Both the position numbers and the translations under genes were made by a program. A stretch of 64,000 bases of DNA, from assembly GCA_010015585.1 (NCBI GenBank), contig ML975151.1. The stretch is one strand, 5' to 3'. This DNA comes from Eremomyces bilateralis CBS 781.70. Taxonomy: Eukaryota. How positions within the stretch are numbered: the first letter of the stretch is position 1; every line of letters begins with the position of its first letter. Of this stretch, positions 1 to 20,426 are shown piece by piece. The notes under the pieces are model-generated. The model searched no databases. It was not told where the DNA came from and was given only the letters and a program-made list of their open reading frames with translations.

Positions 1-1571
1 GGATCCAGTAAAGACATGCGTACTGGACTTCAGGAGGAAGACTTTGTTCAACTCGGCTTCTCTCGACATTGGCTACAAGCATGCCGGGGGCATCTACACA
101 ACAGATATCTTGCTTAAGTGATGTTGACATAAGCCGTATACAGCTGTCGGTTAATACTTGATAGGCTTGCTTCTCGTCTACCCAGAACTCTGGGTCTTTG
201 CACCTGGCCTTGTTGAGGAGATAGTCCCGAAACGAAGGGTGATGTAGACGGAGTGGGTAGATGTCACCCTTCGGGATGTCTAGAATCGCATGAAGATCCT
301 TCAGGATCCGATCAATCTTTTGCTTCGTGACATTGAGCAGCTTGCCAAGCGAGCTGGCAGAGAGTGGAGAGAAAAGAAGCGCAATACTTCCAAGAATCTG
401 TCGTAGAGTGCCATACAACTCTTCCTTCTCTTTTGCTGAGTAACCTAGACGAATAGTCTTCTTTAGGACAGTAGTGTAGAGCTCATTGAGGTGCTCTTCT
501 GGTGCGGTAGTAGACGTGCTACCTTCTAGCAGAGTTTGTACTCTTTCTTCTGCGAATAGGCCTTCTTGAATGAATCGACAAGCAGTTGCGGCCCATATGA
601 ATAATCCACCTGCAATCTGGATCAGGAGTTTGATAGTCTCTTCGCCTGGCCAGCAGGAACCTAGAGAGTGTTCCTGTCCAATGAGATTAAGATTGTGCTT
701 AAAGTAAACAGAGATATCGTGATCTACGATCGATGGAGATATATTGTGGAGTACAAAGTCCTGGTGTTTACCATCTGGTATTTGAACGAAGCCGTTTCGG
801 ATCGGAACTTCAGGCCGGCTCGTCAGGAAGACTCGTAATCGAACCGTCTCTAACGATCGAGCTTCGGCCAAGAGATGTAGGATGATCCGGATGTCATTAT
901 CATTGTCGCACTCATCGAGTGCATCGACGACAAGGACGTACGCGGATTGGTTACCATTTTCGTTCAGCTTCGACAGCGGGCGTAGGACGAGTTGCTGCCA
1001 CTGATCACGAAGAGACTGGCTCGCAATGTCGCGACGCTCTTTGAGAGCGTCGCATATATGTTGGCCAAGAGACGGTATGCTGATCGCTAGCTGCCACGCA
1101 ATGCTCGTGACGAACTTGCCTGCATGACCGACGTCTCTACCGCCGCGCTCGAAGAAGAAGCTGGCTCCAAGGCGCTTCTGCTTAAAATATATCCGAGCGA
1201 CAGTGCGCGTAATCGTCGACTTCCCTGTGCCGGCCAAGCCATTCAGCCAGAAGATGCAGCGCTCGTCTCGGCTACCAGCCCAGCTGTAGATCTCTTGAAG
1301 GAGGTCAACGCGGGTATCGGGAAGGCAGGTCACGTCATGTTGTCGCTGGTATGCGTTGAACGGCGCGTCCTCTGCGGTAGGGAGGGATTTAAGCACATCG
1401 TTCAAGTCTAGATTTCCAGTCAGCTTCTTGCTGCTTCGAGGCCATAGCCAGCTAAGCACACTCACTTTCGCTGCTCCCAAAGTTCACAGATCCATGGACA
1501 GTGCCAGCAACAACCTGCGAATTCTGGTTGGCGGACAAACCGCTAATAATGCGTTGAGTACTGCCTGACAT
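1..1571 (-). CDS. NLR-type NACHT (STAND NTPase) protein, HET-E/NWD-like; 3' end runs off the window
   Basis: Manual translation (absent from the ORF track because no stop occurs in the window). Exon 1 1571..1466 MSGSTQRIISGLSANQNSQVVAGTVHGSVNFGSSE; intron 1465..1408 (GTGAGT...GCTGAC...CTAG). Exon 2 has CLPDTRVDLLQEIYSW, Walker A IFWLNGLAGTGKSTIARTVA, LGASFFF, Walker B VLVVDALDEC, VFLTSRPE, AGGLFIWAATAC, LRLHHPSFRDYL, PEVQYACLYWI. Confidence 0.93.
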
Positions 1572-1944
1572 GAGCTGGAGTAGCGACGCTAAGTTTTGCT
1601 AGCTGCCGGCTGTTGCTCTCTTCTGGAGTGTATTGCCGTGTATGTGAACATGTGCATGCGAACACCTGGGAGTGAGTTTATATCTGTACCCAGATGAGGT
1701 TCATCCTCAACTAACGAATGCATTCGCAAGGCTCGCCAATCAATACTCCTGCCTTGCCGCTACTGCTGGGGAGCAGCTGTCGGCTACAAAGTAGGGCGGA
1801 CCTAATAACGCCAAGACCATTCGTCGACGTTTCGTCGACGTTTGAAGGTTTGAAAACGGAAAATAGCGCTATACCTGATAGGGTAGCGCTAAACTATAAA
1901 CAGAATTTCGGTAGCACACAGATTACGGAGTAGGCATGTGTCGG

Positions 1945-3397
1945 CGCCCAGCGGAGGACAAAAATAGCGGGACTCACATTGGGCTTGGCGCCACCACCCG
2001 TACAGATTTCTATATAAAAACAGATATATTCACAATAACGCAGTCAATCCACGTCAAAGTGGAAGGTGACGTTATTAAGTCTTATACAAACAGTCTATAT
2101 GTAAAAAAAGCGGCGGTTAGCCCCCCATTCCGCCCCCATAACCAATCAGTTGACCACCAGCCTCGATCACCTTTCGAAGTCGATCAGGCATAGAAAGTAC
2201 CCGTTTATTAATCCATTCCTGTTTAAGCTCTCCCCAGGCCTCGATCGCTAATTCACGAGTCTCTTCGGGATTGAAATGGCGATATTTCCGTACGTATTGC
2301 TTCGTCGGTTGCCAACAGTCCTCGATGATCGCAAGATCCGGCGATCCTGCGCAATTAAAGTACGAATGTACGCCATTTTGCTCTTTCCATTGTTGTACGG
2401 CATTGCCTTTTTTCCGTGACCGCGGCGGTGCATGGCCTGAGTCTTGATCCTCCTCTAAAACGAAGAAATCTCCACGGTCGACCCATTCCTGAACTTCCAT
2501 CTGGAGTATCTCCTTGGGATAAACGTCCTGGGTCATCTTCCCGTTTTTATTCGTCGGTATCTCGTAAAAGGTAAGGGGGGACTTGAAGTCGTAGCCCACC
2601 GCGGCCCATGCGTAGACTTTGAGCTTCTCTGCGTCGTCCCGTTCCTCCGCGCGTTGGATACACTTGGGACAGTACCGTTCGCCGCGTTTCCGGATAATAA
2701 CGAGCTTCCCTTGAGGCCCCATCCCGAAATGGACTTCGTCGCTAAATCTGATATATTTCCAGTGATCCGGAGTCGGATACTTATCGAGCCAAAGCTTCGC
2801 GCGGTTCAATCGCATCTCGGCCAGCTGTTTGTTGCAGTACGGCTTCCGACACGCGACGCATTTGAAGTATCCATGCTTTTCCATAGCCCGACGAATTGTT
2901 CGGCTAGAAACATCGAGTCCGGCCTCAAGCGCAAGTGTATCCCAATCAATAGCTCGTTCTTCGGCGCAGTCAGCGCTCTCGAGGATATCGGTCATCCGTT
3001 GGATATCTTCGTCGGTGATTTTAGGCGGTCGACCTCTTGTTTCGAGTCGATTAGGGATATTCCGTTCCCTCCGCTCAGTTTCCGCTTTGGCGTACTCATA
3101 TCCTCTGGTTTTGGATACGCCATAACGGCGGAAGATATCGGCGTGAGTGTAAGTCCGATTAAAACCATCGATACGTCTTATACCGTTAATATACTCAATA
3201 GCATCCTTAATTTTCGCTTTTGTAGGTGTTGTAATATGTTCTCGAGGCCTTTTTCTACGATCTTCAGCTAATAGAGCTGCTGCACGGGTTTGGGGAGCCA
3301 TATTAATTGATTATCTAAATGGAAGATGAATAGAGATTTTGGTGGTGGTCTGCCAAGGCCTGAAATGAGTCCCGCTATTTTTGTCCTCCGCTGGGCG
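1945..3397 (-). mobile_element. Full-length Tc1/mariner DNA transposon with perfect 32-bp inverted repeats
   Basis: CGCCCAGCGGAGGACAAAAATAGCGGGACTCA at 1945-1976 is the exact reverse complement of 3366-3397. The repeats enclose an intact transposase ORF. Confidence 0.93.
2117..3301 (-). CDS. Tc1-like DDE transposase (DD41E spacing)
   Basis: GRPPKIT, HTH region (VSSRTIRRAM), catalytic motifs RFSDEVHF / LEEDQDSGH / SPDLAIIEDCW, C-terminal SMPDRLRKVIEAGG. 41 residues lie between the second D and the E (hand count). Confidence 0.93.
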   Translation of the reverse strand: MAPQTRAAALLAEDRRKRPREHITTPTKAKIKDAIEYINGIRRIDGFNRTYTHADIFRRYGVSKTRGYEYAKAETERRERNIPNRLETRGRPPKITDEDIQRMTDILESADCAEERAIDWDTLALEAGLDVSSRTIRRAMEKHGYFKCVACRKPYCNKQLAEMRLNRAKLWLDKYPTPDHWKYIRFSDEVHFGMGPQGKLVIIRKRGERYCPKCIQRAEERDDAEKLKVYAWAAVGYDFKSPLTFYEIPTNKNGKMTQDVYPKEILQMEVQEWVDRGDFFVLEEDQDSGHAPPRSRKKGNAVQQWKEQNGVHSYFNCAGSPDLAIIEDCWQPTKQYVRKYRHFNPEETRELAIEAWGELKQEWINKRVLSMPDRLRKVIEAGGQLIGYGGGMGG

Positions 3398-3953
3398 GCG
3401 GTGGGCCACCCTTGCATCGCAACTTTTCCCAGTTCGTCCCATCTAGCGCCGGCCTCGGCATGATTCAACATCGCATGATTGGATTCCTCGCTCCAACGCA
3501 GCATCACCGTCTGCAGCTCACCACACGTGTCCCAAAACCGCGATAACCTAACGTCGCCTACATGGCCAGCGTGGCTAGATGGTCCGGAAACGCGCCGTCC
3601 CTTGCCGCGACTGCGAAAAGCGGCAGCAGGCTGGAGGTAGGATGTGGTAAGCTATGAGCTATGAGCTATGAGCATGGAGCTGACGAGATGTCCTCCGAGC
3701 CCTCGGGGCAGTTGGTTGCGTTTCTTTGTTGTGCGGCATTGGCGATTCACAGTCGAATTGAGGCGTTCACATATTCTGGACCGGTTCCTACTATAGTGAG
3801 CCTGAAGCCGTCTCGTGGTTGTCGTTGAAACATTGTCCTTCGTCAGGTCTCTTTATTTTTCCAGTCGTCATAGTCAATTTCCAGACGTCCCAGTGACCTC
3901 GAGGAGCTCTATCGTCCAAAATCCCCAGCGACGATACGGACTCAATCGTCAAA

Positions 3954-5679
3954 ATGGCACCCAACATCATGATCAGCAATAACATGCCCCTCGGCGTGGA
4001 CACTAACACCTCCATCCCCCAGTGCATGCTCCGCTACAACCCCGACGACGTCGCCTCCGACAAGCTCGTCCACCTCGACACCATCTCCGGCAAGTCCCTC
4101 ACCTACGGCGGCCTCCGCAAGCGCGCTGCCCACTGCGCCTGGGGCCTGCGCAACAAGCTCGGCCTGCAGGTCCAGCAGATCATGCTCGTCTTTGCGCCCA
4201 ATTGCACGGATTTCGTGCTCCTCGCGCACGCCATCTGGTGGAGCGGCGCGGTTCTGTCGCCGTTGAACACCGCGTCGACGGTGAAGGATATCGAGCATGT
4301 TTTGAACCTGGTAGGGCCAACGCATATTGCGGTGGCGCCGCCGTTTGTAGAGAAGGTGATAGAGGCGATTCGGGGATCGAAGCTAGCGGGGTCGAGGGCG
4401 CCGACGCTGTGCACCTTATTGGAACGACATGGAGATCTGCCTCTGTTTCCAGAAGATGTCGAAGGCACTTCGAGTGCGGAGAGTCTACCGCCGTGGGATC
4501 TGGACGGCATGTCCTCCAAGGAGGCGGTCAGCAGTGTGTGTTTTTCTTCCGGTACGACCGGACTGATCAAAGGAGTGAAATTATCACACTACAGCCAGAT
4601 CATGAACATGATCCAACTGCGCGTCTCCATGCCCACGCGAATCCACTCCGGCATGCGCGAAGTCTTCTTCCCTCCTTGTAAGTTCCCTCATCTCCCATCC
4701 TTCCACGAGCTCCACCAACGTCTCCGCAGTCGGCCACATCTACGGCGTCGCCATCATCATGCTCACCGGCATGTGGGTCGGTGCGTTCTTCTGCACCATG
4801 CCATCCTTCGACCTCCCCACCTACTGCGCCCTCATGCAACGCCACCGCGCCACCGACATGCACATCGTCCCACCCGTCGCCCTCCTCCTCACCACCTCCC
4901 CGATCGCACAGTCCCACGACCTCTCCTCCGTCCGCAACATCATGGTCACCGCCGCCCCGCTCAAACCGGCCCTGCAGACGAAACTCCTCACCCGCTTCCC
5001 TGACGCCGATATCTACCAGGGCTACGGCATGACGGAGACCTGCCCGGCGCTGACCTCGCAGCATCATCTCACGGCGACGAATATCGGCAGCGTGGGGAAG
5101 CTGGTCACAATGACGGAGGCACGGCTGGTGGATCCGAGCACGGGAGTGGACGTGCGGGATGGCGAGGAGGGGGAGATGTGGGTGAAAGGTCCGCAGGTGA
5201 TGATGGGGTACATCAACGACGCGGCAGCGACGCGGGCGGCATTCTCAGACGACGGGTGGCTGCGCACGGGAGATATCCTGCGGCGGGACGGGAACGGGGA
5301 TTACTGGGTGACGGACCGGTTGAAGGAGATGGTGAAGTACAAGGGGTTTCAGGTGGCACCGTCGGAGTTGGAGGATCTGCTGCTGGGGCATCCGGACGTA
5401 GTGGACGCGGCGGTGTGCGGGGTGTATGTGGAGGCGGAGGCGACGGAGGTTCCGGTGGCATATGTGAGTTTGGTGGAGGGAAAGGCGGGGGTGGTGGGAG
5501 AGGAGAGGAGGAGGGTGTTGGAGGGGATACGGGGGTGGTTGGATGGGAGGGTAGGGGGATATAAGAGGTTGAGAGGGGGGGTGCATCATTTGCAGGAGTT
5601 GCCAAAGACGCCGAGTGGGAAGATCTTGAGGAGGGAGTTGCCGGCGAAGGTGAAGGCGGCGAGGATGGCGAAGCTGTAG
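3954..5679 (+). CDS. 4-coumarate-CoA ligase-like acyl-CoA synthetase, peroxisomal (PTS1 AKL)
   Basis: AMP-binding motifs FSSGTTGLIKGV, YQGYGMTET, WLRTGD, KYKGFQVAPSELE, LPKTPSGKILRR. Intron 4678..4729 (GTAAGT...CAG) joins the two ORF-track halves (FFPPF-GHIYG). C-terminus ARMAKL. Confidence 0.93.
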
Positions 5680-6600
5680 GGGTGGGATGAGATACGAACT
5701 TATGGATGGATGAGCCGTTATGAGTATGCTGCTCTCGTAGTCGGAGTGGGATCAGGGTTTCCACTTTATTCCGACAATAACGATAGACCAATGATAGATC
5801 AATGAACATTATGAGTTACAATAGGGGTAGTGTACCCTTCACCTCCGCTGTATCATCAAGGGCATGAAGACACATGCATGAATTAAATCCTCTACCTAAC
5901 TAGCAACTAGACTAGGAACCGCCTTTTGCCCCGTTCCAGACCTCGTGAATTCGTGTCAATAGCTTTCCATTCACCCTCGGACCACAGACACGGTGATCCT
6001 CTAAATCAAGAACCAGCCACCTCACATTGCTACCCACACGATTTCTTAGCAGGCATGTAAGATATGTAAATGTAGCAACTCTTGATTCATTCGCACCACA
6101 CTCTTCCCCAGGGATATGGAAGGGATATGGAAGGAATAACTACACGAACTGGTATAAAAGATCGATAAAGAACATTATGGTAAGGGTCGGCCCATGGTGC
6201 GGTATATGGTAGGTAAAGGTAAGGTCAGGGACCGTGTAGATGTCTCCGTATCCAGTCCGTGATATCGTCCCCAGAGTCTCAGATATCGGCTCCCCTTCCA
6301 TAAAAGCATGGCATGACGACGCCTAGGTGGGGTGATGCGATGCATACATGCATGCGTGTGCGATCACCATTGAGTTTCCCGCCTTCTGCACGCCACATCG
6401 ATATCGACAGAAATGTCAACAGCGAATCGGCGACACCTTCCTCTTTTCAGCACGCGTTGCAAACGAGCCGAAATCAACCCCTGGGGATCAACCACCCCCA
6501 TCCCATCCATTCCATTCAACTCCCTTCCCACCGTTTCCCCTTTTTCTCCCTCTCCCTTCCACTTTCCATCACAACATCCCCCCTTTTCTCCCAAGCACAC

Positions 6601-6795
6601 TTAAACCACCTCCTTCGCAACTCTCTTCGCCTGGATCTTCCGGTAGGCGAACAGGCTGATCAGGAAGATGGCGACGGTGCCGACGATGGCGAACACGACG
6701 ATGACGCCGGGCTCCTTGGCGGCCCAGTTCTTGCGCTTCGTGAGCGTCGAGAAGGCGAGTTCGGGAGCGCTTTGTAGGGATGAGATGGCGGCCAT
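6601..6795 (-). CDS. 64-aa single-pass membrane microprotein, uncharacterised
   Basis: ATG in good context (ATCGCCATGG). MAAISSLQSAPELAFSTLTKRKNWAAKEPGVIVVFAIVGTVAIFLISLFAYRKIQAKRVAKEVV has one hydrophobic helix followed by a basic tail and strong C-ending codon bias. Confidence 0.75.
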   Translation of the reverse strand: MAAISSLQSAPELAFSTLTKRKNWAAKEPGVIVVFAIVGTVAIFLISLFAYRKIQAKRVAKEVV

Positions 6796-7231
6796 GGCGA
6801 TTGTGGGTAATGTTTTGTTCGGCGTGGGTTGAGGAGCTGCAGGCGCGGGGATGTTAGTTGGTGGTGGTGGAGGGGGGTTGGGCGTGGTGGGACGGGTTTG
6901 CAATTAATATTAGGGGACTGGATGAGAAGACGGAAAACAGAGAGATTGAGAAGGTAAACAGTCTCGATCTGTGCAGAAGAAAAACTTGAGAGGTGGAAAT
7001 GATATCGGCAAGGTGCGGGAACTAGGAAGCGGTGATTAAGCAGGATCAACGTGCCGGTTGAATATGTTCTGCCAATTGCCTCCAATTGGGGTTCAGTGAC
7101 GGAGACGAGTTCGACGTGCAATTCAACAATTGATCGCAAGTATTGCAATACAGTCTTCTCGTCGCGTGGAGTGGAAAGACGAAGCAGCAGCACGTTGGAG
7201 CGGTTTTGGTGGAGGGACAATTGCGGCTTAA

Positions 7232-7512
7232 GGTGAACAGAAACCCAGCAGCAGCAGAGCTCAAATCCAGGACAGCTCCCAAAACAATAAAAAGCTCAAT
7301 TGCCCGATCAACGCAACGCCCAAAAAGTCCTTTTTTGTTTCTCCTCGGATTGGCATTCAAGGATCACTCGGCTTTTTAAGACGAATTCCTGGCAATTGGC
7401 AATGCGGTCTTCGCTCGGATAGCTCGGGAGCAGGCAAACTTTTTTTCGTCGAGGATTTTGGAGACTGCCCCGGAAAATCGCGCAAAATGCTGCTGCTGGG
7501 ATTTGGTGCACC
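7232..7512 (-). repeat. Long imperfect inverted repeat / RNA hairpin, probably in a 5'-UTR intron
   Basis: 13-bp perfect stem 7244-7256 / 7488-7500, followed inward by helices 7266-7275 / 7465-7474 and others that pair via G-U on the minus-strand RNA. Confidence 0.7.
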
Positions 7513-8764
7513 AAAAGTCCATAAACGACACTCGTCACTCACTCCAACGTTTCTGGTCTGCTTCGTTTCGCCTCACGTCATGCACGCATTGATTGCAGAA
7601 GCCAACGGCGGTGCAATGGGGGTGGTGGCGGGCAAAAGGAACGGAACTGAACGACGTGCATGCACATGGAGGGACCACCAACGCTCTCACTCACTCACCT
7701 GTTGCTAAGCTTCGGTAGCTGAATCGATCAATTCTCGCAGCTGCGCAGGGTGTCGGATGACCTTGGATCGCGGCGCGCAACGTAGGCGAATCGGGCGAGG
7801 GGTACGGGGCTCGAAAGCGTTCGAATTGATAGAAGATTTGGGAATTGATGAAGCAGAGAGATCAGAGAAGGAGAAGGTTCGAAATGGAAGTAGAAAAGAG
7901 GCTGGTGTTGGCGTCGAGGAGTGACGGAATCGGGTGGGAGCCGCGAGGGCGCTGAGGCGCTGATGGAGTGGGACAGCTGATTGGTTGGTGGAGGGGCAAC
8001 GAAGGGGAACAGGTAAGGAGCTGGTGGTCGTTGGTGGGCACTGAAGGGTGGTGGGTGGGGGGAGAAAGAAGAAATTGCTGTCTGAAGGTCTGATTGCGCT
8101 GATCAACGGCCTGGGCGTTAAGAGTTGAGAAATGGGAGCTTGGTCGGAATTACATACTTGATGATAAATGGTGATTGTTCTTGGTCTTGCTTGGCTTCTC
8201 CGCTCCCAGGACAGAGAGGTGATGGAGTGCTAATCTATCTATCCGATTGACTCTACGTAGGATTCTATCAAAGAACAATCCCTCTACAACCTACACTCTA
8301 GAAAAACTATGTCAAAGGGGTCGAAGGGACTCTCATCTCAAGCGGAAACCGGCACTGAATTGCCTGTGGAAACTCGGGAGCTCCAGCGTAGCAGTGTCAT
8401 TTTGGCACCCAGTATTCCTAGCGCCGGTTGTAACCCGGGCTCGTCGATGACTTAGCGTACCATCGCAATCCGCAATCCAAGATTTCAGCTGGGCATCGCT
8501 CGGCGAACGAAGCTTATCACGGCGATGTGACAGGGGCTTCGTTGTCATGCTCCAGTTTTCTTCGACCCTTCATTAAACCGACGATGATAATGTGCAGAAA
8601 CAGGAACAGAAACTGATCATCTAACAATTCCACATACGTAGTACACGAGAACGGGGAGCTTTTGAGTGGATTGATTTTACCTGGACACACATGTACTATG
8701 TACGATAGATGACGCTCCTCTCAGAAGTATCTCGTTCCTGCTGATTTTATTTCAAAACATGTAT

Positions 8765-9699
8765 CTACAATTTCGACGGCACCCACTTCGGCTGCTTCTT
8801 CTGCGCAAACGCCGCCAACCCAATCCGAATATTATCCCCCTTCATCAACTTCGCTCCATACTGCTCCGACGTCACCCGCGCCGCCCCCTCCACGCTCGCC
8901 GTCTCCCACGCCTCCCGCAACCCCGCCCGCGTTACGATCACCGCATCCGGACTCAGCGCTGCGATCTTCTGCGCCAGCTCCACCGCCTCGGAAACGACTG
9001 TCGCCTGCGACTGCGCGATCCGATTAATCAGATTGAACCGCAGCGCTTCCTCGGCTGTCAGTTGGCGTCCGGTCATCGCGATCTCCGACGCGAGCGGGAT
9101 CCCGACGTTGCGCACGATGCGTGGGAGGCCGCCGGCGGCGGCATAGAGGCCGCGTAGGGCTTCGGGGAGGCCGAATTTGGCGGTGGGCGCGGCGACGACC
9201 ATGTCGCTGTGACGCAGATAGGTCAGTAATGCAAGGAATATGATATAATATGATTACAGGACACATGTGGGAAGGAGAAGGCTCCTTACCAATTCAACAC
9301 GATCTCAAACCCGCCGCCCAACGCCCACCCATTCACCGCCGCCAACACCGGCTTCTTTCCCACCCGCCGACTCACGCCCGCGAACCCGCTCGCGGGATGC
9401 GTGGCGAGCGCCCGGTCCGACGAGGACGCCTTCCCGCCCTTGATGTGGCCCTGCTCGATGAGGTCCTGGCCGGCACAGAAGGAGCGGGTGCCGGCGCCGG
9501 TGATGATGGCGACGCGGAGGTCGGGCTCGTCGTCGAACCAGCGGAACACGTCGTCGGCTTCCCAGTGGGCGAAGGAGGGGATGGAGTTCATGGCTTTTTC
9601 GCGGGTGATGGTGACGAGGAGGATGTGGGGAGCGGGGTAGGAGAGGGCGAAGGAGGAGGAGGGGATGGCGGGTGGGGGGGTGGAGGGTGTCCAGGTCAT
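8765..9699 (-). CDS. Enoyl-CoA hydratase/isomerase (crotonase), peroxisomal (PTS1 SKL)
   Basis: FCAGQDL, KPVLAAVNGWALGGGFEIVLNCD, FGLPEALRGL. Intron 9289..9207 (GTAAGG...CTGAC...CAG). Ends WVPSKL. Confidence 0.93.
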
Positions 9700-10315
9700 T
9701 TTGGCGGTAGTGGTGGTTGGATGCTGGTGTCGTTTCGTGCTGGATTCGCAATTCTTTTGATATTGAGATGCCGTATCGACCGTGGAGGTAAGTATCGGTA
9801 GGTCTTGTAGTTGGTAGTATCGCTCTGTTTCGTCCGATGTTATGAAGTATTCAATCCCAACGAGTAGATCAGTTAGGCACGCTCTGAAGACACCAAACCG
9901 AAGACAAGAAAGAAACAGAGGCTGAAAGACAACCCGTCATCAATATGAAGTCGTTCCCCCAGGTGAGATGGAGTTCTCTCCGCATTACACTACTTGAATG
10001 GGGGACCTCGGCTTCAAGCGACCATTGCCCTACCGAAGTCAGGGGTCGGCGGGATGTTTTGGTCATGATCGCCGTCGATTATGGGTAAACATTACCCACG
10101 TTTGTTGAAATATCTTCATGTTTACTGGTGCAGTCAACATTCTGTATTCTGAAACTATGTTACGGGCAACCGCAATAGGAGGGAGTACAGCATGGTGGTA
10201 CCATTGTCTCAATGTTTGTCAATAACAAGACTAGACTAAGTCTGACTTGTGAGCTAGAGATATATCAAGGCATTAACTATTCATGCCTTGTTGCCTTATA
10301 TTGGAGGCCAACATG

Positions 10316-11720
10316 AAGGGTGGGGCGCTTAGTCATGGCGCAGAGTCCCAGACTCCCAGTCAATATCACTTCAGCCTCACTTATGTCTTTCTATCACGAA
10401 TTATACAACAATGCCTACCTCAGAGAAGCCCAAACGATTTGAATACGATACTATACGTAAAACGCGATTCTTTGATGCCTATGACACGCTTCCGAAAAGC
10501 TCTTCTTTTAACAGTCTTTGTAAAAGAGAGGGAATAGAGATTCATCCATCAACAGGTCGAAATTGGCTTAAACAGCGCGAACAGTATGGTCGAGCCGCAT
10601 ATCGAAAGACTCGTAAGCTTAGTACACATCTCGGACAGCCCTCTCGAATAAGCGATTCAGATATCCATCGCTTATTAGACCCTTCCAGTCCTCTCCATTA
10701 CCAACCGTACGATGAACAAGGCCTCGAATTCAATGTTAAAGGGAAAACAGTACAACGAAACGTAAAGAAACGGTCAGGAGCCCAACAATTTCAAAAGCCC
10801 TATATCAAAGCTATCTCCCCGGCAAATAAAAGAAGACGGGTCTCGTTTGGTCAACAAAATGAGGGCAAAACATTGACAAGATTTTGGCGATACGTCTACT
10901 TCACGGACGAAGCCCATTTCAATCCTCGAGATTTCTCAGATCGACCTGAATATGAGCTTCGAGTCCCTAATGCGAGTCAACGTCTTCAAAGTCTTCAGGA
11001 AACCAGATCACTCCCACTCAATGTTACCGTTCACGTCGCGAGCGGAGTTTCATACGACCACAAAGGTCCACTTGTTTTCTACAACGATCCAGCTTGTCCG
11101 ACTGTCCCGAAAGCCTACAGGCCGCGCGCCCCTCGCCGATCTGGCATTGAATCAGAAGAGCAATATGCTGAGAACGTCCGAATCTTTCGAGAAACAGCTG
11201 ATCGACCCGAGGTCGAATTAAAGCCCAAAGGAAACTCTATGAGCCAGAGATTCTATCTAAAAGAAGTTCTTCCGCATCATATTAAACACATTAAATGGCT
11301 CGAGGCTAAATATAATCGGAAATTCCTCTTTATTGAGGATAACGACCCATCTCATGGAACTCACTCTAAGAACAATCCTGTTATACAACGAAAGAGAGAT
11401 GAAGATCTCCTCTTACTTGATTACCCCGCTCAATCATCTGATCTTAGTCCGCAAGAGCCAGTTTGGAGAGCGATGAAACAGGTGCTTCGAGGTGGATCGT
11501 GGCATTCGGTGGAGGAATTTAAGCAAGCTATTCGGGCAGCCCATCGCTCGGTATCACAGCGATCAATTAGTGGATATATTAGTGAGATGCCTCAGCGTTG
11601 TAAAAAGCTCATCGAGCTAAAAGGAGGCCGAATTCGCTCCGATAAGTGGTAGAAAATGAATAAATTTGATGAATCTGAGCCTTTGCCAAGCCCTTGCACC
11701 ATGAGTAAGCGCCCCCCCTT
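10316..11720 (+). mobile_element. Tc1/mariner DNA transposon with ~27-bp imperfect inverted repeats
   Basis: AAGGGTGGGGCGCTTAGTCATGGCGCA (10316-10342) versus the reverse complement of 11695-11720, AAGGGGGGGCGCTTACTCATGGTGCA. The repeats enclose an intact transposase. Confidence 0.8.
10411..11652 (+). CDS. Tc1-like DDE transposase (DD38E spacing)
   Basis: YFTDEAHF / FIEDNDPSH / SSDLSPQEPVW, C-terminal EMPQRCKKLIELKGG. 38 residues between the second D and the E (hand count). Confidence 0.92.
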   Translation: MPTSEKPKRFEYDTIRKTRFFDAYDTLPKSSSFNSLCKREGIEIHPSTGRNWLKQREQYGRAAYRKTRKLSTHLGQPSRISDSDIHRLLDPSSPLHYQPYDEQGLEFNVKGKTVQRNVKKRSGAQQFQKPYIKAISPANKRRRVSFGQQNEGKTLTRFWRYVYFTDEAHFNPRDFSDRPEYELRVPNASQRLQSLQETRSLPLNVTVHVASGVSYDHKGPLVFYNDPACPTVPKAYRPRAPRRSGIESEEQYAENVRIFRETADRPEVELKPKGNSMSQRFYLKEVLPHHIKHIKWLEAKYNRKFLFIEDNDPSHGTHSKNNPVIQRKRDEDLLLLDYPAQSSDLSPQEPVWRAMKQVLRGGSWHSVEEFKQAIRAAHRSVSQRSISGYISEMPQRCKKLIELKGGRIRSDKW

Positions 11721-12207
11721 TGGGCCGCTCCAGCAAAGTATGTTCGACAGCGATCTAGACTGGATTAGATCTGGATCTGGATACCGCCGCCTGGATAACT
11801 TCATCCACCTTGGATCATTTGTAAACTGTACTCACCAAGAAATTATACCTTGCAACAGATGATTTCTATATAGGTACTAAGCCATACCAGGATACTAACG
11901 CTGCAATCCATTCTGTCACACGACTCCAGCGTTCCTCCAGTCAATTCAAGGTGTCGAATATGCGCCTCCAGGCAAGTCCGGTGAGGTCCAGCACAGCCCT
12001 TCCATGATGCAGGGCACTGCAGCATCACAAGCCTCATGGAGTCATGGCTGCTAACTTCAAAAGCCAGCAGCTGAGTCTAGATTTCGAGAGGGTTTTAAAG
12101 TCTTGCAGATATCCTTTCCTGTCCATGTAGCTTTTGTTTCGAGTTCTCGGCTTTTTTCTTCGTCTCTTTCAAGTCCAGCGCTTTGTTTCACCTGCTATTA
12201 TTCATAG

Positions 12208-13618
12208 ATGGCATCCAGAGAAGAAAAGCTCGCCACCTTTGCAGACCCGTCCATCGTCTCATCTCATTCGTTAAACATCATCGAGGGCTGGATCGACTCG
12301 CAACAACGTCTACAAGCACAACGAGGCAAAATCTCCTTCCATAACCTTCCCCGCTTCCTAGACGGTACCTCCAGCCCGATCGTCCCCCAAACCCATTCTT
12401 CCCGTCGACGTTTCCGCATCATCTCCTTCCCCCGCCTCGAAAATGGCCGTCTCAAACTGGGCTTCCCCCAACCCACCTATCACCAAATCCGACAATCCTG
12501 GTGTCTCCACGACCTCACCCTAGAAGCCTTCCTAAACAACAACGGCATCCTCTCCAGCCTCGAGACGCAGGACACCACCTGTATCCTCATGAAAGTCGCC
12601 GCATCCCGCTCCACCGGCTTCGATACCGTCTCCATCTCGCACCACCGCGCCGCGAACCTCACCAATGTGCTCTACTACAGCCTCGAAAACGAAGACGGGG
12701 TGTTTGACGCCCTCCTACAACACCCAGAGCGCTGCCTGCAGCCGTCGTTCTTCGCCGCGGTGCTCTACCGCTGCCACCAGCAGCGCATCGAGCGCTTTCG
12801 GGTAATTCTCGACGATGAGATCGTGGGGGTGGAGCGGGGCTCGAAGTTCGGGGGGCCGGGGCGGTTGTTTGGGCATCGGTATCGGCATGAAGAACCGGTC
12901 GTGGAGATGCAGGGGGATAGCATGACGAAGAAGTTGAGTTATGTGCAGACGGAGTTGGCGGTGTTGGGGCATTTGGCGCGGTCGAGTTTGGAGATGGGGG
13001 GGTGGTTGGTGGAGATGGCTAGGCAGGAGCGGGAAGGGGGGCTGGATACGGACGCGAGTGCCGTGACGGAAGAAAAGGGAGAGAAGGAATTGGGGATGCG
13101 GATGTCGGAGAATGTGAGGAAGACCCTCGATGAGGCGGAATACGTGCGCCGGCGTGCAGCGACTGTCGTGTCGCAGATCCAAGCTGTCAACGATCGAGTG
13201 CAGAGTCAGACGACCTTCGTAAGTCCGAGCCGCCACTGAAGTCTACCGATGAAGCCGTCCCTAATCCTCCCACCAGCTCCTCAACAGCTCCCTCCACAAC
13301 CAAACTGACTACACCGCCGCCATTGCCCTCGAGACGAAAAAAGACAGCTCCGCCATGAAAGCCATCGCGGCGCTGACCATCGTCTTCCTCCCCGGCACCT
13401 TCGTGGCGACGGTGTTCAGCATGAATATATTCGACTGGAGCGGCGGTGAGGGTGCCGAGCCGCGCATGTCGAAGTATATCTACGTGTATTGGATCGTCAC
13501 GATTCCCTTGACGCTATTAGTGATGTTCGCCTGGTGGGTTTGGCTTAGGAGGGATCTGGGGAGGTTTCGGAATGTGAGGAGCTTGAGTGACTTGCGGACG
13601 ATGGAGAAGAATGTGTAG
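12208..13618 (+). CDS. Fungal CorA-like membrane protein (two C-terminal TM helices)
   Basis: Coiled-coil region followed by KKDSSAMKAIAALTIVFLPGTFVATVFSMNIFDW...YVYWIVTIPLTLLV. Intron 13219..13276 (GTAAGT...CTAAT...CAG) joins ORFs 12208..13239 and 13355..13618. Confidence 0.85.
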
Positions 13619-15200
13619 GGCTACGACTCTTATGATCTATAGATGGATGGACTAGGGAGGCATTATACAAACGAAGATAAGGTAAGGTATGATAATATTG
13701 TCTTCGGGATGCAGTCCTCTCCGATGCTGACGTCCGCAGAATAGGTAATCGCTGGTTGATATTAACTTTTCAGAAATATTATGCGGGAATCATCATTAGT
13801 ATCATCAATATGAGCATGTGTTTCTTCCATTTACAAATCATTTTCCCTTGGTCCTTCAGAACTTTCCAGTCCCATCACAACATCGATCTCATGAAAACAG
13901 CATCCTCTCTTTTGGGATCCGACGGCATTAGCAACTTTGGAGCCATTATGCAAGAGTCATAGCGTTGCTCGCGGTAGATGTCCACCAGGCAGCAGTCAAA
14001 CACAACGTCAACAATCCCAACTATTGCATACACCCTTCGCATCTGTCCGCCATACTGAAAGCGCAGAGATTTTGGGTGTCGAACAAGGCGGATGGCAGCA
14101 AATATATTCGTTCAATTTAGTATTTCCGAAGTATAGCTGTAGTCCGGTGTTCAGAAACCTAGGATCTTTCTTGCCGCGATCCTCTGCGGAAAGCCTGGAA
14201 AATGATCAGGCCAGGGGGATTGTTTATACAAAACGATCGACCCTAGTTTTGTCCTCATTGACTCGTATCATTTCTGACTCTTGCCTGTTATTTTCTTCAG
14301 TAATCATGCTGAATGGCATCGGGGCTACGTGTTTTCGTATATCGCTATCGCTCGCCGGGCTATCGGTGATATGAGCAAACTAGTTCACCCAGTACATGAG
14401 CAAAAGAAGTTGTTAGTTCAATCCGTGCGGGTTATTATTAACAGGCTTTTTTCTATTCACTAGATTTTCCCAGAGTTTTTTTTTTCTCCTTTGTCGCACA
14501 TCAGCAATAGTGAACCTCATGCTCGATCAATGCTCCCTTGCATGCACCCGGCATTTGAGAGGACAGGAGTTTATATATTGTTTCCCCTTTATTCCCTCTT
14601 CTTTGCCGCGCATCAACAAGAATGACCTTCATGCCCGATCCGTCCGACTCTCGGAATTTGAGATGACACAAGTATCCATAAATTGCTCTCTCATTACGAA
14701 GACGTCTTCAATCTAGAATTAACACTAACCTTGAGTCCGGAGCTTCCAGGGCTCTCTAGTGGGGTATATGCTTCTTGAAGCTATTCGACGGACTAGATAA
14801 CCTCTCCCTTATTCTCTGGGCCAACGACCTTCCCAGCAAGATCAGGATCCTAGAAGTCGTTGCTCACTATCGGATCACTCTCCGAGAATTCCGCTTCAAC
14901 GACCAACAAAATATGGACCATTGGTCTACTTGGTTGGTTACTAACTTATGTGACACGGATAAGAGCCATCGTGGCCTCGTGGAGAGACACCATGCCTGAA
15001 GTGATGTAGGATCAAGCATTGAGCTCAATGATCCGTAGATGGAGGGAGTGAGAGGCTGGGCGGGTCCTTGAGCGAAGCCCTAGAGAAGGAAAGGATACAA
15101 ATGGAAATAGAAGTTGATATTACACATAATTAATGTTTTTTGGCCTGACTTGAACTGACATAAAAATCTATCGTTTTATTTTAAAATAAAAAAATAAATG

Positions 15201-15301
15201 TCCGCCGAACCAGGATCGAACTGGTGACCTTTGGATGCCATGCACGATCATTGAAGATCCGATATTACAGTCCACTGCGCTACCAACTGCGCCACCAGCG
15301 G
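15201..15301 (-). tRNA. tRNA-Tyr (GUA) with 28-nt intron
   Basis: CCGCTGG TG GCGC AGTTGGTA GCGC A GTGGA CTGTAA [intron] A TCCAA AGGTC ACCAG TTCGATC CTGGT TCGGCGG A. Cloverleaf, A/B boxes, intron after position 37 and a downstream T-run terminator. Confidence 0.95.
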
Positions 15302-16784
15302 CAGTTCAATTAATTTTTCTACCTCTGCAAAGCCGTTCCCATGCATTCTCATCTGGCTCTTCAGTCCTTAGCCAAGGGTGCAACAGCCAGCCTGATCGTG
15401 TTTCTTACAGTGCTTGAATATTAGAATATCGCTCAAAATATGTCTTGAAGGCTGGCGAACATGCTCGTCGACCGTTGTGGAAATGAATCCAAGAATCTAA
15501 TTAACTAATGATTTTGCTTCTAAGTTAGTCTCCAAGCTCCCTAAGAACCCCTCCTCGATCCATCATTAGCAATTCGCCCAGAACACCAAGAATTCATCGG
15601 AAAATAGCTAAAACAAAGGAAAAGCAAGGAGACAATAAGATAGCAGGTTGACAAGGACGAACTCAGCCAAAGCGCGGCAGATGAGCAGAGCCGCTGAAGA
15701 TTGGCACACCAGTGACCAGTCACCAGACAGATCGAAACCGAATTAGGGTCACCATGGCAGCACAACCCTGTCAACAACGGGTTTTCATGCCCGCTAACTC
15801 AACAATGCTCCCATCCAATCTGGGGCGATAGCTTTGTCGGTACGCTCTGTCAATTGAATCTTTACGAAGCGTTCATAGATGCCCAGTGCTAATTCGGCTT
15901 CCAGCCTGATAGGAAGCACTATGCCCCTGTCACGAAAATCGTTTTCGATCTAGCTGGTCTTTCACAAAACACCACTTAGCTAATTTTGGTATGCATGAGG
16001 GTGATGTCGGATTTTGACATTCTTGGACGAAATTCGCCTTTTCGTCCTTTGAGAATGAATTTATCGATGTTTCTCCTGACTTATTAAATTTATTACTGCA
16101 TCCTTTCTATGGAGCCGGAGGGACATTCGTTCATACTAAGACATACCTTTTTGACGTGAATAGCGGCATTTATCAGCGGGCTCCCAGGGTGAATGACTGT
16201 CCACTATTCACACTCGTGGCGGCATGTATGAGCCTTGAATAGATTTATTAAAATGTAAATCGACCACCTTTGACAATGCAACTGTATCCCTTGTTGTTAT
16301 AGGCTTTTCTCTTTTAGTCAGGAGAATGAATTCCTCTTGTACTCATTATGGGCACTACTCAAAAGACACCCCTTATTTTCACTCAAAGTGCAGCCCCAGC
16401 ACTAGTGGCCTATTTAAGAATATTGACAATAAAATCAAGGTATTCGTCGCGGTCTGGCGCGAATAAACTAGGGGCCGCAGAGCAAGCACGGGACGGACAG
16501 TCAGGAACCCGGAGTGGGCCGTAAGGAGTCGGCAAAATGGGTGGTAGCAGGGCGGCCTCAAAACAAGTGGAGGAGCCAAATCGGGTAGCAGGGGGGTACC
16601 CGAAGCAGGTGGCTGGAGGTGCCTATAGTGGGCGGTATTTTGGGCATTTGTTTTGGACCGTTCGATAGACAGCACCGCGTTAGATTCCAAGGTCACGCGA
16701 TAGTGTGACATCGATAGAGCATTTCAGAACGCATGTTTTAACTTCTCTTTCGAGGCTTAAGAGTTAAGCACCCTGAATTCACTA

Positions 16785-17346
16785 CTCGTGCCAGGCTTCC
16801 CCCCCCTCCAGGGTGGGTGCGCTACAGATCAACGCAAACCACACAACAACGCAAAGTCTGTACTCAACTCAAATAGTTAATTATCTCAACACCAACATGC
16901 CTCCTGATTTTCAATGGCAGTTTACTGCAAGCGGAGCTCGGCACGCAACAAGGCAGTGACTTGGATCGCTATTTAGATGCCAGCCACAACCGCAAACGAA
17001 AAACAACTCGTCGACGTGTTAATGCAGGAGGTCCTCTTTATGTTAAGGATGCAAATGGCCGGATTGAAGAGCGGAAGGCTACGGAAATGAGGGAGGAGTG
17101 GGAGAAGCGTGAGCGACGCCGGGCGCGCGATAAGAAGAAAAGGCAACGTGAGCTCACAGAGGAGGCTCGCAGGGGAGAAATAAATGGTGAAACAGCTGCT
17201 ACAGCTACTGGAGATCAAGAAAATCTCCCTTATTTTATAGATACTCAACCGTGGTAGAAGAAATCGATTGTTTTGTTGCTTGATGTACTCGATTTTGCGT
17301 TGATTTGTGGCGCACCCACCCTGGAGGGGGGGAAGCCTGGCACGAG
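16785..17346 (+). mobile_element. Internally deleted (non-autonomous) pogo/Fot1-like DNA transposon, 562 bp, TA target duplication
   Basis: ~54-bp TIRs (CTCGTGCCAGGCTTCCCCCCC(C)TCCAGGGTGGGTGCGC...TCAACGCAAA), TA at 16783-84 and 17347-48. The interior keeps only a charged transposase C-terminus (RRRVNAGGPLYVKDA...). Confidence 0.9.
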
Positions 17347-18169
17347 TATTCACTATTCACATGGTATTTCCAGGGTCTTTACTCCTTTACGGGCCCTGGT
17401 CTGTTGCGTGTTTGCCCTTTTATTAGCCAAATCATAAGGTCAAAGATGAAAGATCTGTGCGCCGAATTTGCTAGTAAGAAGGCACAGACACGGCAGACTA
17501 GGGCTGGTGAAGGAATGAATAATGCAAATGAAAAGTACATGACAGGATTCTTGAAAAGATTGATTAATATTCAACGGCTCAATGTATTATTCCGATCCCG
17601 TACCAACAATGGCTCAGAACATAAGAAACAGTTGGCTGCCTGCAGGGTTTGATGTTACATCTAAATATGGTAAGCAAAACTTGGGGATCACGATGGAGAG
17701 CAGCCGGACAACGGGAGAACGATACTCTGGGGCTATCCGTTGCAACTTCAATGGCTTACCAATTGCTTCGTCTGTAATAATGGATTGCCACTTTGGTAGA
17801 GACGCTGTCCTTCCCCGCTGGTCGGTTGCACAGATCGACGCTCAAAGCTCTGCTTATTATCAGCCCAATCGCACTTGTGTTTCTGGACGGAGATATCAGA
17901 CTACCGCTTCAGGGTTAGGGTCTTCAAATCAGGGTTTCAATTGGTCGATGGCATCGTTAAATCCCTAAATGGTATATATGGCGCCACATCCTAAAAACCT
18001 AACCCCGACGCTAGCTACTACATACGTACGTATCAGTTCGTCAAGTATTTTAGTTGCTAACAACTCCTTATGACGACGCTTCCTGTTGACATGTCCTAGG
18101 AGGCTTGGTCGGACCAGCACGGAATGGACAACTCCCTTTAAAAAGGGGCATAGAATATTATTAAAGAGC

Positions 18170-20426
18170 ATGGATTCTAACGCTGTTGAGGGGAGGAAGC
18201 AGACCGATCTTGGTCTGACACCACAACCGAACATGACCGGCATCGCTGATTTCACAAACATATTTCGGGCTTATCCCAACCCAAACACAGCACGCAAAGT
18301 CATTAAACGGCCGCGCCAGGCGTTTTCCTGCACAGCATGCCGAACCCGCAAGCTCAAGTGTGACCGAGAACGCCCATGTGGGATCTGCATCGCAAGAGGA
18401 GATGACGAAAAGTGTAGATATGCGTCGACGCCGAAGCAGCAGAAGGAGTCGAGGCTGGGCGTCCAGGGGCAGTTGCAGAGATTGGAAGAAATGGTGTCAA
18501 AACTGGTCCAAGATGGTAGTGCTGTTGCGAACTCGAATACAGCAATTACTCCGGATGATTCCACTTCCAGTTCCAATATGTCTACCAACGGCACGCAGCT
18601 GACGCTGGACTCTGAAGGGAGAGGCAGTGCGGAACCCGGCCCTAGATCAGTGTATACGGGGGCGACACATTGGACCACAGTCCTCGACGGTATCCGCGAT
18701 ATCCAAGACTGGCTTGACTTCGAACCCGAACCCATCCCATCGGCCCCGAACCCCCCGTCTAGTGGCGGGTTGTATGGCTTCATCTTCGGCGATCTGGAGC
18801 CGCTGAAGGTTGAAGAAGCCATCGAAGCGATACCTCCTCGTTCAGTCACCGATCCACTTCTGCAATTGTACTTCAGTTCGAAGTTCGCTTCGCCTACGTT
18901 TCTCCATGAGGGGAAGTTTCATCGTGACTACGAGCGCTTTCGAACTGACCCGGCTAGAACAAGCCTCTTCTGGATCAGTCTGCTCTATTCCGCACTCAGC
19001 ATCGCGGCGCTTGCGGCTCACGGCAGCAGACATTATCTAACCAAGCAATCCTACAATATTGACCCTGCGGCCCTCCGGAAGAAAGCCGGCCAGTGTCTGG
19101 TGACTGCCGAATATCACGAAGCGCAGCAGTATACTATCGAGTCGTTGGTACTATATTGTTTGGCGGGATTTTACGCCACCAGCGAGGCTGATTCGTCGCT
19201 TTGGTCGTTGTTCGGATTGGTGACCAGACAAGCCCAGAGGATGGGCTATCATCGTGACCCAAGTCACCTAAAGAGCAATGATATCACACCTTTCGAAGCC
19301 GAGATGCGGCGACGCGTATGGTTCTATCTTGAGACGTTCGACGTCCTATTCTCTTTTCACCTCGGGTTGCCTCCAATCATCCACGAAGGTGTCTGTGACA
19401 CTACACCACCGAGCCACCTCCTGGACGAAGATTTTGATGAACACAGTGAAGTACTCCCAGAGCCTCGATCGGACGTAGAACCGACGCACATGCTCTACCA
19501 GTACTATAAGTCGGCGTATATGCGAGCCTTCCGCAAAGTTGTCCGACACGCCCTCGCCGCCGGCAAACCGTCCTTCGAAGAGACCATCCTGCTCACGAAC
19601 GAAATGGAGGACTTTCATAACGGGCTCGCTGAAAGCTTGAAGATCCGGCCCCTTCAAGTCACACACTTCACCGACCCACCCTCTACGATCATGCATCGAC
19701 TGATGCTCGAAATGTGCTACCTGAAGAGCATGTGCGTGCTGCACCGTACCTACCTTAATTTCGAAAAACGCAATCCCAAATATGACCGATCCCGGGAAAT
19801 CTGCCGTGCGGCTGCCATTCGGATCCTCGAGCTACAGTCCGAGTACCACCGCGAGAGCCAACCGGGGGGTCGACTGCACGAATCCAGCTGGATGATGTCG
19901 AGCCTGAACCATGACGACTTCCTGCTTGGCGCCATGATCGTCTGCCTGGATCTGCGAGAGAACGAGTCGATGAGCGTAACGGACCGAGCTCGGAAGATTG
20001 AGGCGCTGGAGATTTCGCACGATATCTGGTCGGAGCGGAAGGATCGCTCGATGGATGTGCAGCACGCGCTGAAGGTCCTGGGATTGATTTTGAAAAGTGT
20101 GAAGGGGCACGAGAATTGGCATCTGGGGATGCAAGACTCAGAGGTCGCAGTGATGGCATCCAGTGCTTTACTGGCTGGGAGTAGCATGCAATTTGAATCG
20201 CTGCTTATGCCGGGGACGGTGCAATGTGATATGGAGGACCTGTCCCTGGCCTTGATAGATTCTGAGGGATTCGATGAATTGTTGAATGACTCGGCGAACA
20301 TTGATTGGGTGAGTTGACGTACTGAATAGCTTTGATTGCTACGGTAGACACTGACTTGCGTAGAATGCTATCGACGGATTCATTTTCGATCGTAATGGCA
20401 ACCTTGATCACTCCGTGTACTCCTAG
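18170..20426 (+). CDS. Zn(II)2Cys6 fungal-specific transcription factor
   Basis: SCTACRTRKLKCDRERPCGICIARGDDEKC, plus a fungal TF middle domain (AQRMGYHRDP, EAEMRRRVW). Terminal intron 20309..20363. Start is ATG 18170 or 18233. Confidence 0.92.

Follow-up and report, generated by a model that had tools for sequence, protein, structure and literature searches.

What does the long inverted repeat upstream of a small membrane-protein gene do, on the minus strand of the 64,000-nucleotide stretch analysed here (the window)? It may act as RNA in the leader of this gene, or it may be the remnant of a DNA duplication. The reading favoured here, with a probability of roughly 0.45, is that it forms, within the leader of the pre-mRNA, a cis structure specific to this lineage, which biases the choice of splice donor and the retention of the leader.

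Fold and extent of the structure

The hairpin is real and more extensive than first described. Its parts are as follows.

7179..7566, minus strand: full imperfect rod (arms at about 7568-7425 and 7310-7176; 90-93 Watson-Crick columns in the arm alignments; weak apical domain)
7540..7566, minus strand: 5' strands of two outer helices (partners 7202-7192 and 7187-7179; pair probabilities 0.98), which cover a cryptic GTGAGT donor at 7542
7232..7512, minus strand: inner portion of the rod as first described, from folding

Folding of 7232-7512 gives -105.1 kcal/mol for the sense (minus) strand, with a z-score of -3.93 and none of 200 shuffles equal, versus -88.2 kcal/mol for the antisense (plus) strand, with a z-score of -1.77 and 14 of 200 shuffles equal. 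The strand-specific hairpin of the sequence-only reading is thus recovered on the sense strand, but its strand specificity is a tendency only. All ten helix strands quoted in that reading are present at their places on the minus strand, although not all of them are paired in the fold. The helices 7500-7488/7256-7244 (13 bp, p 0.99), 7474-7464/7276-7266 (11 bp with 3 G-U, p 0.96) and 7444-7437/7296-7289 (8 bp, p 0.88) form on the minus strand; the CUCCAAAAU helix is formed in part (5 bp, p 0.62), and the CCCGA/UCGGG helix is missing both from the centroid and from the helices with p>0.4. The apical domain, given as ~110 nt in that reading, is weakly folded and has no helix with p >0.6.

Two outer helices of the minus strand had been overlooked, 7566-7558/7187-7179 (9 bp, p 0.98) and 7550-7540/7202-7192 (11 bp, p 0.98), and their addition extends the structure from the ~280 nt originally given to a rod of ~390 nt (7566-7179). 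The full rod has a z-score of -6.56 on the sense strand and -3.26 on the antisense strand, for boundaries picked after the fold had been seen; a separate estimate from 25 shuffles gives -4.2. On a grid of 970 tiles of 393 nt anchored on the rod itself, the rod has the longest unbranched stem in the window (107 bp; tile median 28), within which the longest perfect helix is 13 bp. For comparison, 3 of 456 tiles of 281 nt exceed the excess stability of the hairpin in a GC-only comparison, and a z-score of -4.5 is reached near 17 kb by an inverted-repeat element flanked by TA.

The rod lies between two used splice donors

The leader and its isoforms are described by the following features.

6601..6795, minus strand: 64-aa membrane microprotein (P0001), PMP1-like, with a single hydrophobic stretch
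7699..8219, minus strand: non-coding first exon as far as the RNA contigs reach (RNA contig and joint), with one AUG-stop mini-uORF at 8155
6837..7698, minus strand: 862-nt GT-AG leader intron with the distal donor; its splicing removes the entire rod
6837..7054, minus strand: 218-nt GC-AG leader intron with the proximal donor; its splicing leaves the rod in the mRNA leader
7055..7698, minus strand: 644-nt segment kept or removed by donor choice, containing six additional AUGs (gapless RNA contig)
7376..7522, minus strand: 48-codon uORF through the 5' arm (uORF scan)
7667-7578, 7581-7573 and 7356-7261, minus strand: further uORFs (uORF scan)
6837..6857, minus strand: common branch motif (CTAAC at 6857) and 3' splice site

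The transcript evidence is from contigs of one RNA run, which carry no strand, start site or isoform level; the run was taken as RNA on the basis of four splice joints missing from the DNA run and three empty intergenic bins. The joint 7699>6836, found in the RNA run and not in the DNA run, defines a GT-AG intron of 862 nt (donor 7698, acceptor 6837), and the joint 7055>6836 of the RNA run defines a GC-AG intron of 218 nt (donor 7054, acceptor 6837), the donor of which reads CG|GCACGT. The rod is transcribed, as the RNA contig is unbroken over 7055-7728 with the rod included. A ~520-nt intron, in which the hairpin had been placed, is not supported by this contig or by the joints, none of which starts at 7542, the introns seen being those of 862 and 218 nt. 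Additionally, CTRAY branch motifs in 7698-6837 occur only at 6913 and 6857, with none in 7698-7055, and the lack of such a motif near the proposed end of the ~520-nt intron argues further against it.

The rod therefore sits between two used donors that share the acceptor 6837, which is the position expected of a splicing-regulatory leader structure and bears out the earlier suggestion that the location is suited to act on splicing. Splicing from the distal donor yields a leader of 562 nt with one mini-uORF, and splicing from the proximal GC donor yields a leader of 1206 nt that contains the rod and six additional AUGs. The RNA contig depths are 2032 for the rod contig and 84-97 for its neighbours, a single figure per contig that gives no basis for ranking the isoforms. 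A 14-nt micro-exon ahead of 7055 was considered and is not indicated, the contig being unbroken there. The cryptic donor at 7542 is predicted to be buried in an outer helix, with a mean unpaired probability of 0.13 around the site; both used donors are also predicted to be largely paired (unpaired 0.33 and 0.26), so that masking is not specific to the cryptic donor. The GC-AG intron at 7054-6837 (minus strand) is non-canonical, and orthologues have a GT donor there.

The host gene

The best Pfam match of the microprotein is PMP1_2 (PF08114), at 20.3 bits and E 4.6e-4, under the gathering score of 22.3. PF08114 is matched by 3 of 95 homologues at E 0.001, the nearest Atlas cluster has 11% PF08114 members, and the homologue P0081 bears a precomputed PMP1_2 family label. 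The microprotein may be termed PMP1-like; its membership in PMP1_2, below the cut-off, is not established. Like PMP1/PMP2 (PF08114), it is a short membrane protein whose hydrophobic stretch has a PGVIVVF-type start and which has a basic tail; it differs from them in an additional conserved N-terminal segment. In yeast, PMP1 and PMP2 are regulators of the H+-ATPase. A profile search returns 916 relatives at E 0.001, of which the named ones among the 120 listed are from filamentous ascomycetes; as defined by this search, the family has more than 900 members, mostly unannotated. An L-x-K-R-x-N segment is invariant in the family just before the membrane helix, and the gene in the window is without the C-terminal coding intron found in many Pleosporales orthologues. 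The PDB matches are to flavivirus M-protein only, weak (E 0.018 or worse), and were taken as chance.

The neighbouring exportin-T is identical to one record (P0264) and has its best non-identical relatives at 58% identity, the best ones being from Dothideomycetes, and these relatives place the organism on an isolated Dothideomycete branch.

Copy number and mobile elements

In the DNA run, one contig of flat depth spans 5462-10345 (likeness 80), whereas the transposase at 10.3 kb attracts many variants. No second copy of the rod is present in the window or among the DNA-run contigs at 80% likeness, some records having been filtered out, and the rod is single-copy so far as these DNA-run contigs allow a test. 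The multicopy MITE which would have undone the sequence-only reading is thus not what is seen. An inverted repeat in a window with Tc1/mariner-type elements, and with an inverted-repeat element flanked by TA, would suit a MITE or another transposon relic in the leader. However, besides the lack of a second copy, no target-site duplication is seen by eye at the rod ends, so that the combination of terminal repeats and duplication that characterises a MITE is lacking, and interruptions run the whole length of the arms, in contrast to the terminal repeats at 16783-17348, which are near-perfect. A transposon origin is largely refuted by these results, and we consider it very improbable.

The element at 16783-17348 is itself MITE-like, TA-flanked and ~565 bp long, with near-perfect terminal inverted repeats. 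Transposase ORFs are present at 1942-3400, with 57-nt inverted ends, and at 10333-11652, multicopy in the runs; by their motifs, both appear to be Tc1/mariner-like. In Rfam, the rod has no match, its best local matches (E 2.9-6) being far under the gathering threshold, and a scan of the window yields a tRNA only. This tRNA, at 15201-15301 (minus strand), has an intron and, from the alignment, the anticodon GUA.

Strand bias and neutral decay

The G-U pairs of the inner helices had been taken to argue for selection on the RNA. This argument is not sustained, as the ratio of G-U to A-C mismatches in strand-neutral arm alignments is 7:4 to 14:7 (p 0.09-0.27), base composition by itself predicting 57% G-U among such mismatches, and the energy gap between the sense and antisense strands is equalled by 12% of 300 neutral-decay simulations (p 0.12). 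The total stability of the rod is inside the range of the neutral simulations (p 0.10). Another signal does hold statistically: perfect runs of at least 9 comprise 31 bases in the rod versus a neutral-decay mean of 6, and a single simulation in 300 gets that far. Pairing in the rod is more blocky than neutral decay predicts, an effect that gene conversion between the arms or CAG/CTG slippage, which lay outside the simulations, could mimic.

These results bear on a different explanation, in which an inverted duplication of intronic regulatory DNA is decaying without a function, and the rod is an old palindrome with constraint, if any, only on transcription-factor sites. The arms align as DNA with a z-score of ~9 and the antisense strand folds too, both of which would be expected of a duplication, and the strand asymmetry and the stability are in the neutral range. 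The blocky pairing seen in only 1 of 300 simulations speaks against such decay, as does the whole kept segment 7055-7698, which folds well on the sense strand only (z -5.28 sense and +0.22 antisense, from 20 shuffles each). We regard a functionless duplication as the chief rival, though a somewhat unlikely one, with further evidence on both sides given below.

Orthologous leaders

For comparison, 48 related loci were taken from one metagenome scan; L047, in which 14 residues matched and no motif was found, is probably a false locus. By sequence inspection, 15 representative leaders have two introns each, with a first intron of 258-342 nt containing 1-5 AUGs, a short exon and the second intron. 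The GC donor of the window is at the position of the second donor of the orthologues, and the rod would therefore sit in the equivalent of their first intron. This first-intron equivalent appears to have no evident acceptor of its own. If the rod is a decaying duplication, the alternative donors would follow from the loss of the first intron's acceptor, and the lack of a branch motif in 7698-7055 is consistent with this. Transcript-like contigs of L031 (373-550) and L037 (71-232) keep the first leader intron with the two later introns gone, as judged by comparison with L032 and L018, in which the second and the coding intron are present. First-intron retention may therefore recur, perhaps as a family trait; assembly paths could mix isoforms.

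The fold itself was expected by the sequence-only reading to be conserved in orthologues if functional, and among the orthologues compared, which are not close relatives, this is mostly not observed: no excess structure is found in 18 orthologous leaders relative to upstream controls, there is no consensus fold among 16 aligned introns, and significant arm pairing occurs in one lineage only. The z-scores of whole first introns range from +1.95 to -2.07 among 14 of the 15 introns listed, L026 being wrongly bounded. A profile of 15 orthologue motifs (nhmmer) does not match the rod up to E 50, and blastn of the leader against the orthologue upstream regions gives a best E of 0.28, with no conserved 21-25-nt arm sequence. 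Most of the related fungi examined look to be without the fold, and the rod looks lineage-specific rather than a conserved RNA family. No synteny was found between the window and any locus in the first 16 kb. A conserved uORF peptide was considered and rejected, as the frames differ and L030 is without an ATG.

The lack of a conserved arm sequence also bears on whether Dicer processes the rod as a milRNA or hairpin-RNA precursor borne by an abundant host transcript, in which case small RNAs would derive from the bulged 23-bp outer duplex or from the 13-bp core. The stem is long and near-unbranched, is transcribed and offers duplexes of miRNA-like length, and fungal milRNA loci are often gene-associated and lineage-specific (PMC9757828). 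The same paper, however, describes wholly intronic fungal milRNAs as very rare; perfect helices reach no more than 13 bp, the RNA contig has no break over the rod, and no arm sequence of 21-25 nt is conserved. Processing by Dicer thus appears improbable.

A smaller rod in one Pleosporales lineage

One Pleosporales lineage (L032, L036 at 3453-3629, L038, L046 and L048) is predicted to form a nested rod of ~145 nt within its first leader intron. Arm pairing is significant, on either strand, in five of six lineage members versus 0 of 11 other loci (17 tested), and the fold z-score is -3.5 or lower in three of 17 loci folded. Across six sequences, none of the 24 core pairs of this rod has changed on both sides. 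Two outer flank pairs are intact in 9/9 loci, each of them with three pair types, when aligned in a register chosen after inspection. Ten pairs with two-sided changes on a model-fitted alignment were discarded as biased, the distant 3' arms having been forced. A motif helix common to all Pleosporales was tried and rejected (Fisher p 0.9 over 9 lineages). That a second lineage also has a rod at this place, with covariation in the flank, argues against a decaying duplication in the window.

Whether the two rods are related was addressed through the following part of the rod.

7421..7520, minus strand: 5' arm stretch, with a weak likeness, suggestive only, to an intronic element conserved in Pleosporales orthologues

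A covariance model of six related sequences (R1), run over window positions 1-20000 with filters off, does not match the rod. When R1 is run over 43 of the 48 loci plus the window (5 near-duplicates omitted), 14 loci have E<1e-4 and the window is not among them; R1 gains six further orthologues through common 5' sequence. In a tile comparison with the orthologue element, the 5' arm in the window ranks 16 and 5 of 6390. Of the true members left out of the comparison, 8 and 9 of 10 came first, and the most distant, L003, ranks 18 and 63. About 28 tiles are in the expected segment, so that ranks 16 and 5 mean a p of roughly 0.02-0.07. Homology of the window rod to the Pleosporales rod is thus suggestive only, with the window missed by both the HMM and the covariance model.

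If the rods were homologous, they could belong to an ancient structured RNA motif, not yet described, that was kept in the first leader intron of some Dothideomycete lineages and eroded elsewhere; such a motif might serve as a splicing switch that responds to a condition. The 5' arm in the window ranks near the left-out L003 and shares its position and 5'-arm role with the Pleosporales rod, and intron retention recurs. Against such a motif are the failure of the profile HMM and the covariance model to find the window, significant arm pairing in 0/11 loci outside the lineage, the modest rank p, the lack of an evident ligand-binding pocket and the orientation independence of the conserved 10-mer described below. 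We consider an old motif to have a small chance of being correct.

A conserved intronic 10-mer

The 10-mer AAAT[GC]CC[TG]CA is present in the leader of 26 of the 48 loci, from which the pattern was itself derived; the background is one match in 221,928 strand-bases, with one more in an excluded zone. It is reversed at the same leader place in two loci, and an exact reversed copy is present at -1050 to -1340 in eight loci, with no complementarity beyond the 10-mer for these upstream copies. This orientation independence points to a DNA site, and the 10-mer probably acts at the DNA level, so that the conserved intronic sequence is no evidence for a conserved RNA. The DNA-like behaviour of the 10-mer in orthologues is also what a decaying duplication of regulatory DNA would predict. 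No exact copy of the 10-mer is present in the window.

The loci with the 10-mer in the first leader intron and ~1050-1340 nt before the ATG include L006, L007, L009, L010, L025, L026, L030, L032, L036-L038, L041, L042, L048 and others. The promoters inspected also show GCCAAG and GATAAG blocks, of which the GCCAAG block is presumably PacC-type. On one strand, the commonest form of the 10-mer reads TGAGGCATTT, in promoter and intron, and includes AGGCA; the variants in L003, L005, L015 and L030 are without AGGCA. AGGCA is the binding site of SltA/Ace1, a cation/alkali stress factor of Pezizomycotina (PMC3698166, PMC7641419, PMC8419926). The orthologue 10-mer is like this site in containing AGGCA, and is a candidate for binding only. 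These likenesses suggest that the microprotein family is under cation/pH control, with the 10-mer as a candidate SltA site. The leader architecture, the intron retention and the candidate SltA sites appear to be conserved in the family.

Comparison with known systems

In fungal TPP riboswitch introns (NMT1), the choice of the 5' splice site decides whether uORFs are present in the mRNA. The rod leader is similar in that the donor choice sets uORF retention; such riboswitch introns are mentioned in PMC5640933. Unlike the TPP riboswitch, the rod is without an Rfam aptamer match, a conserved core or a ligand.

Li and Breaker (2017; PMC5640933) describe the SDC motif of Neurospora crassa as a hairpin amid alternative donors and uORFs that represses expression with splicing unchanged. 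The rod shares with it a hairpin in a fungal 5' leader, two 5' splice sites with one 3' splice site, and uORFs in one spliced form. However, SDC is a conserved motif with a tested function, whereas the rod is ~390 nt long, is in another gene, is not conserved in orthologues and is known from sequence and RNA contigs. The hexA motif, from the same paper (PMC5640933), is likewise a long hairpin interrupted by internal loops, and it lies in what is putatively the 5' UTR or an intron of an alternatively spliced fungal small-gene transcript; it is in a different gene, with 19 examples in 10 species, and the rod has no Rfam match.

In Saccharomyces cerevisiae, intron stems termed zipper stems shorten splice distances and mask cryptic sites (PMC12350175). 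The rod is similar in being an extended stem in a long intron that is predicted to cover a cryptic site. With ~130 nt between its base and the donor, and 320 nt between its base and the branch point, the rod falls outside the total linker of 42-85 nt by which zipper stems are defined (PMC12350175), and, unlike zipper stems, the rod is also retained in one mRNA form.

The rod therefore resembles described fungal leaders that are structured, alternatively spliced and uORF-bearing, and fails membership of each by sequence or geometry. No literature on the leader of this gene was found in a search whose coverage took in little of the subscription journals and motif-screen supplements. Of the motifs of Gao et al. 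(PMC8216456), none names this gene in the text available, and two are in 3' UTRs of uncharacterised genes. The rod is lineage-restricted, with no earlier description found in the literature searched.

A possible role in splice-site choice

From the position and the isoforms observed above, we infer how a cis structure in the leader may act. The rod could have arisen by inverted duplication inside the segment that corresponds to the first leader intron of relatives, its helix blocks being maintained by selection. When folded, it would take ~390 of the 844 nt between the distal donor and the branch point out of play, and it would hide the cryptic donor at 7542, which would aid splicing of a leader intron that is unusually long. 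If the rod and uORFs are kept, the retained isoform would be poorly translated, so that protein output would depend on the balance between the two donors.

The two joints, the unbroken contig, the uORFs of the isoforms, the stability and the stem length count for this cis-structure reading, as do the blocky pairing (1/300), the buried site at 7542, the single copy, the intron retention in L031 and L037 and the Pleosporales rod with its flank pairs; the yeast intron stems and the Neurospora SDC hairpin provide precedent. Against it are the non-significant G-U asymmetry, the possible origin of perfect blocks by gene conversion or slippage, the largely paired state predicted for both used donors, the splicing or retention of the intron in most orthologues without a rod, the absence of two-sided change in the 24 Pleosporales core pairs, and the SDC hairpin having left splicing unchanged. 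Other readings, such as an internal start site, make up a small remainder.

A broader proposal, which we consider a long shot, is that the PMP1-like gene, widespread in filamentous ascomycetes, is controlled through its first leader intron, which is laden with uORFs and would be retained in a regulated way. Both rods would then be homologous or convergent switches, built on one and the same intronic element, that couple cation/pH stress, through SltA/PacC-type sites, to splice choice, as an undescribed eukaryotic splicing switch. If the rod does steer the donors, it would be a large and easily mutated test case for the control of 5' splice sites and uORF inclusion by RNA structure, of which filamentous fungi have few worked-out examples beyond TPP riboswitches. 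If the rod is a decayed palindrome, interest would remain only in the gene-level observations.

As a minor observation on the leader, the palindrome CAATTG has six of its 26 window copies inside the 0.9-kb leader (site range 7073-7398). In the orthologues, which are related and thus non-independent loci, CAATTG occurs 34 times in 27.5 kb of leaders versus 31 times in 85.5 kb downstream.
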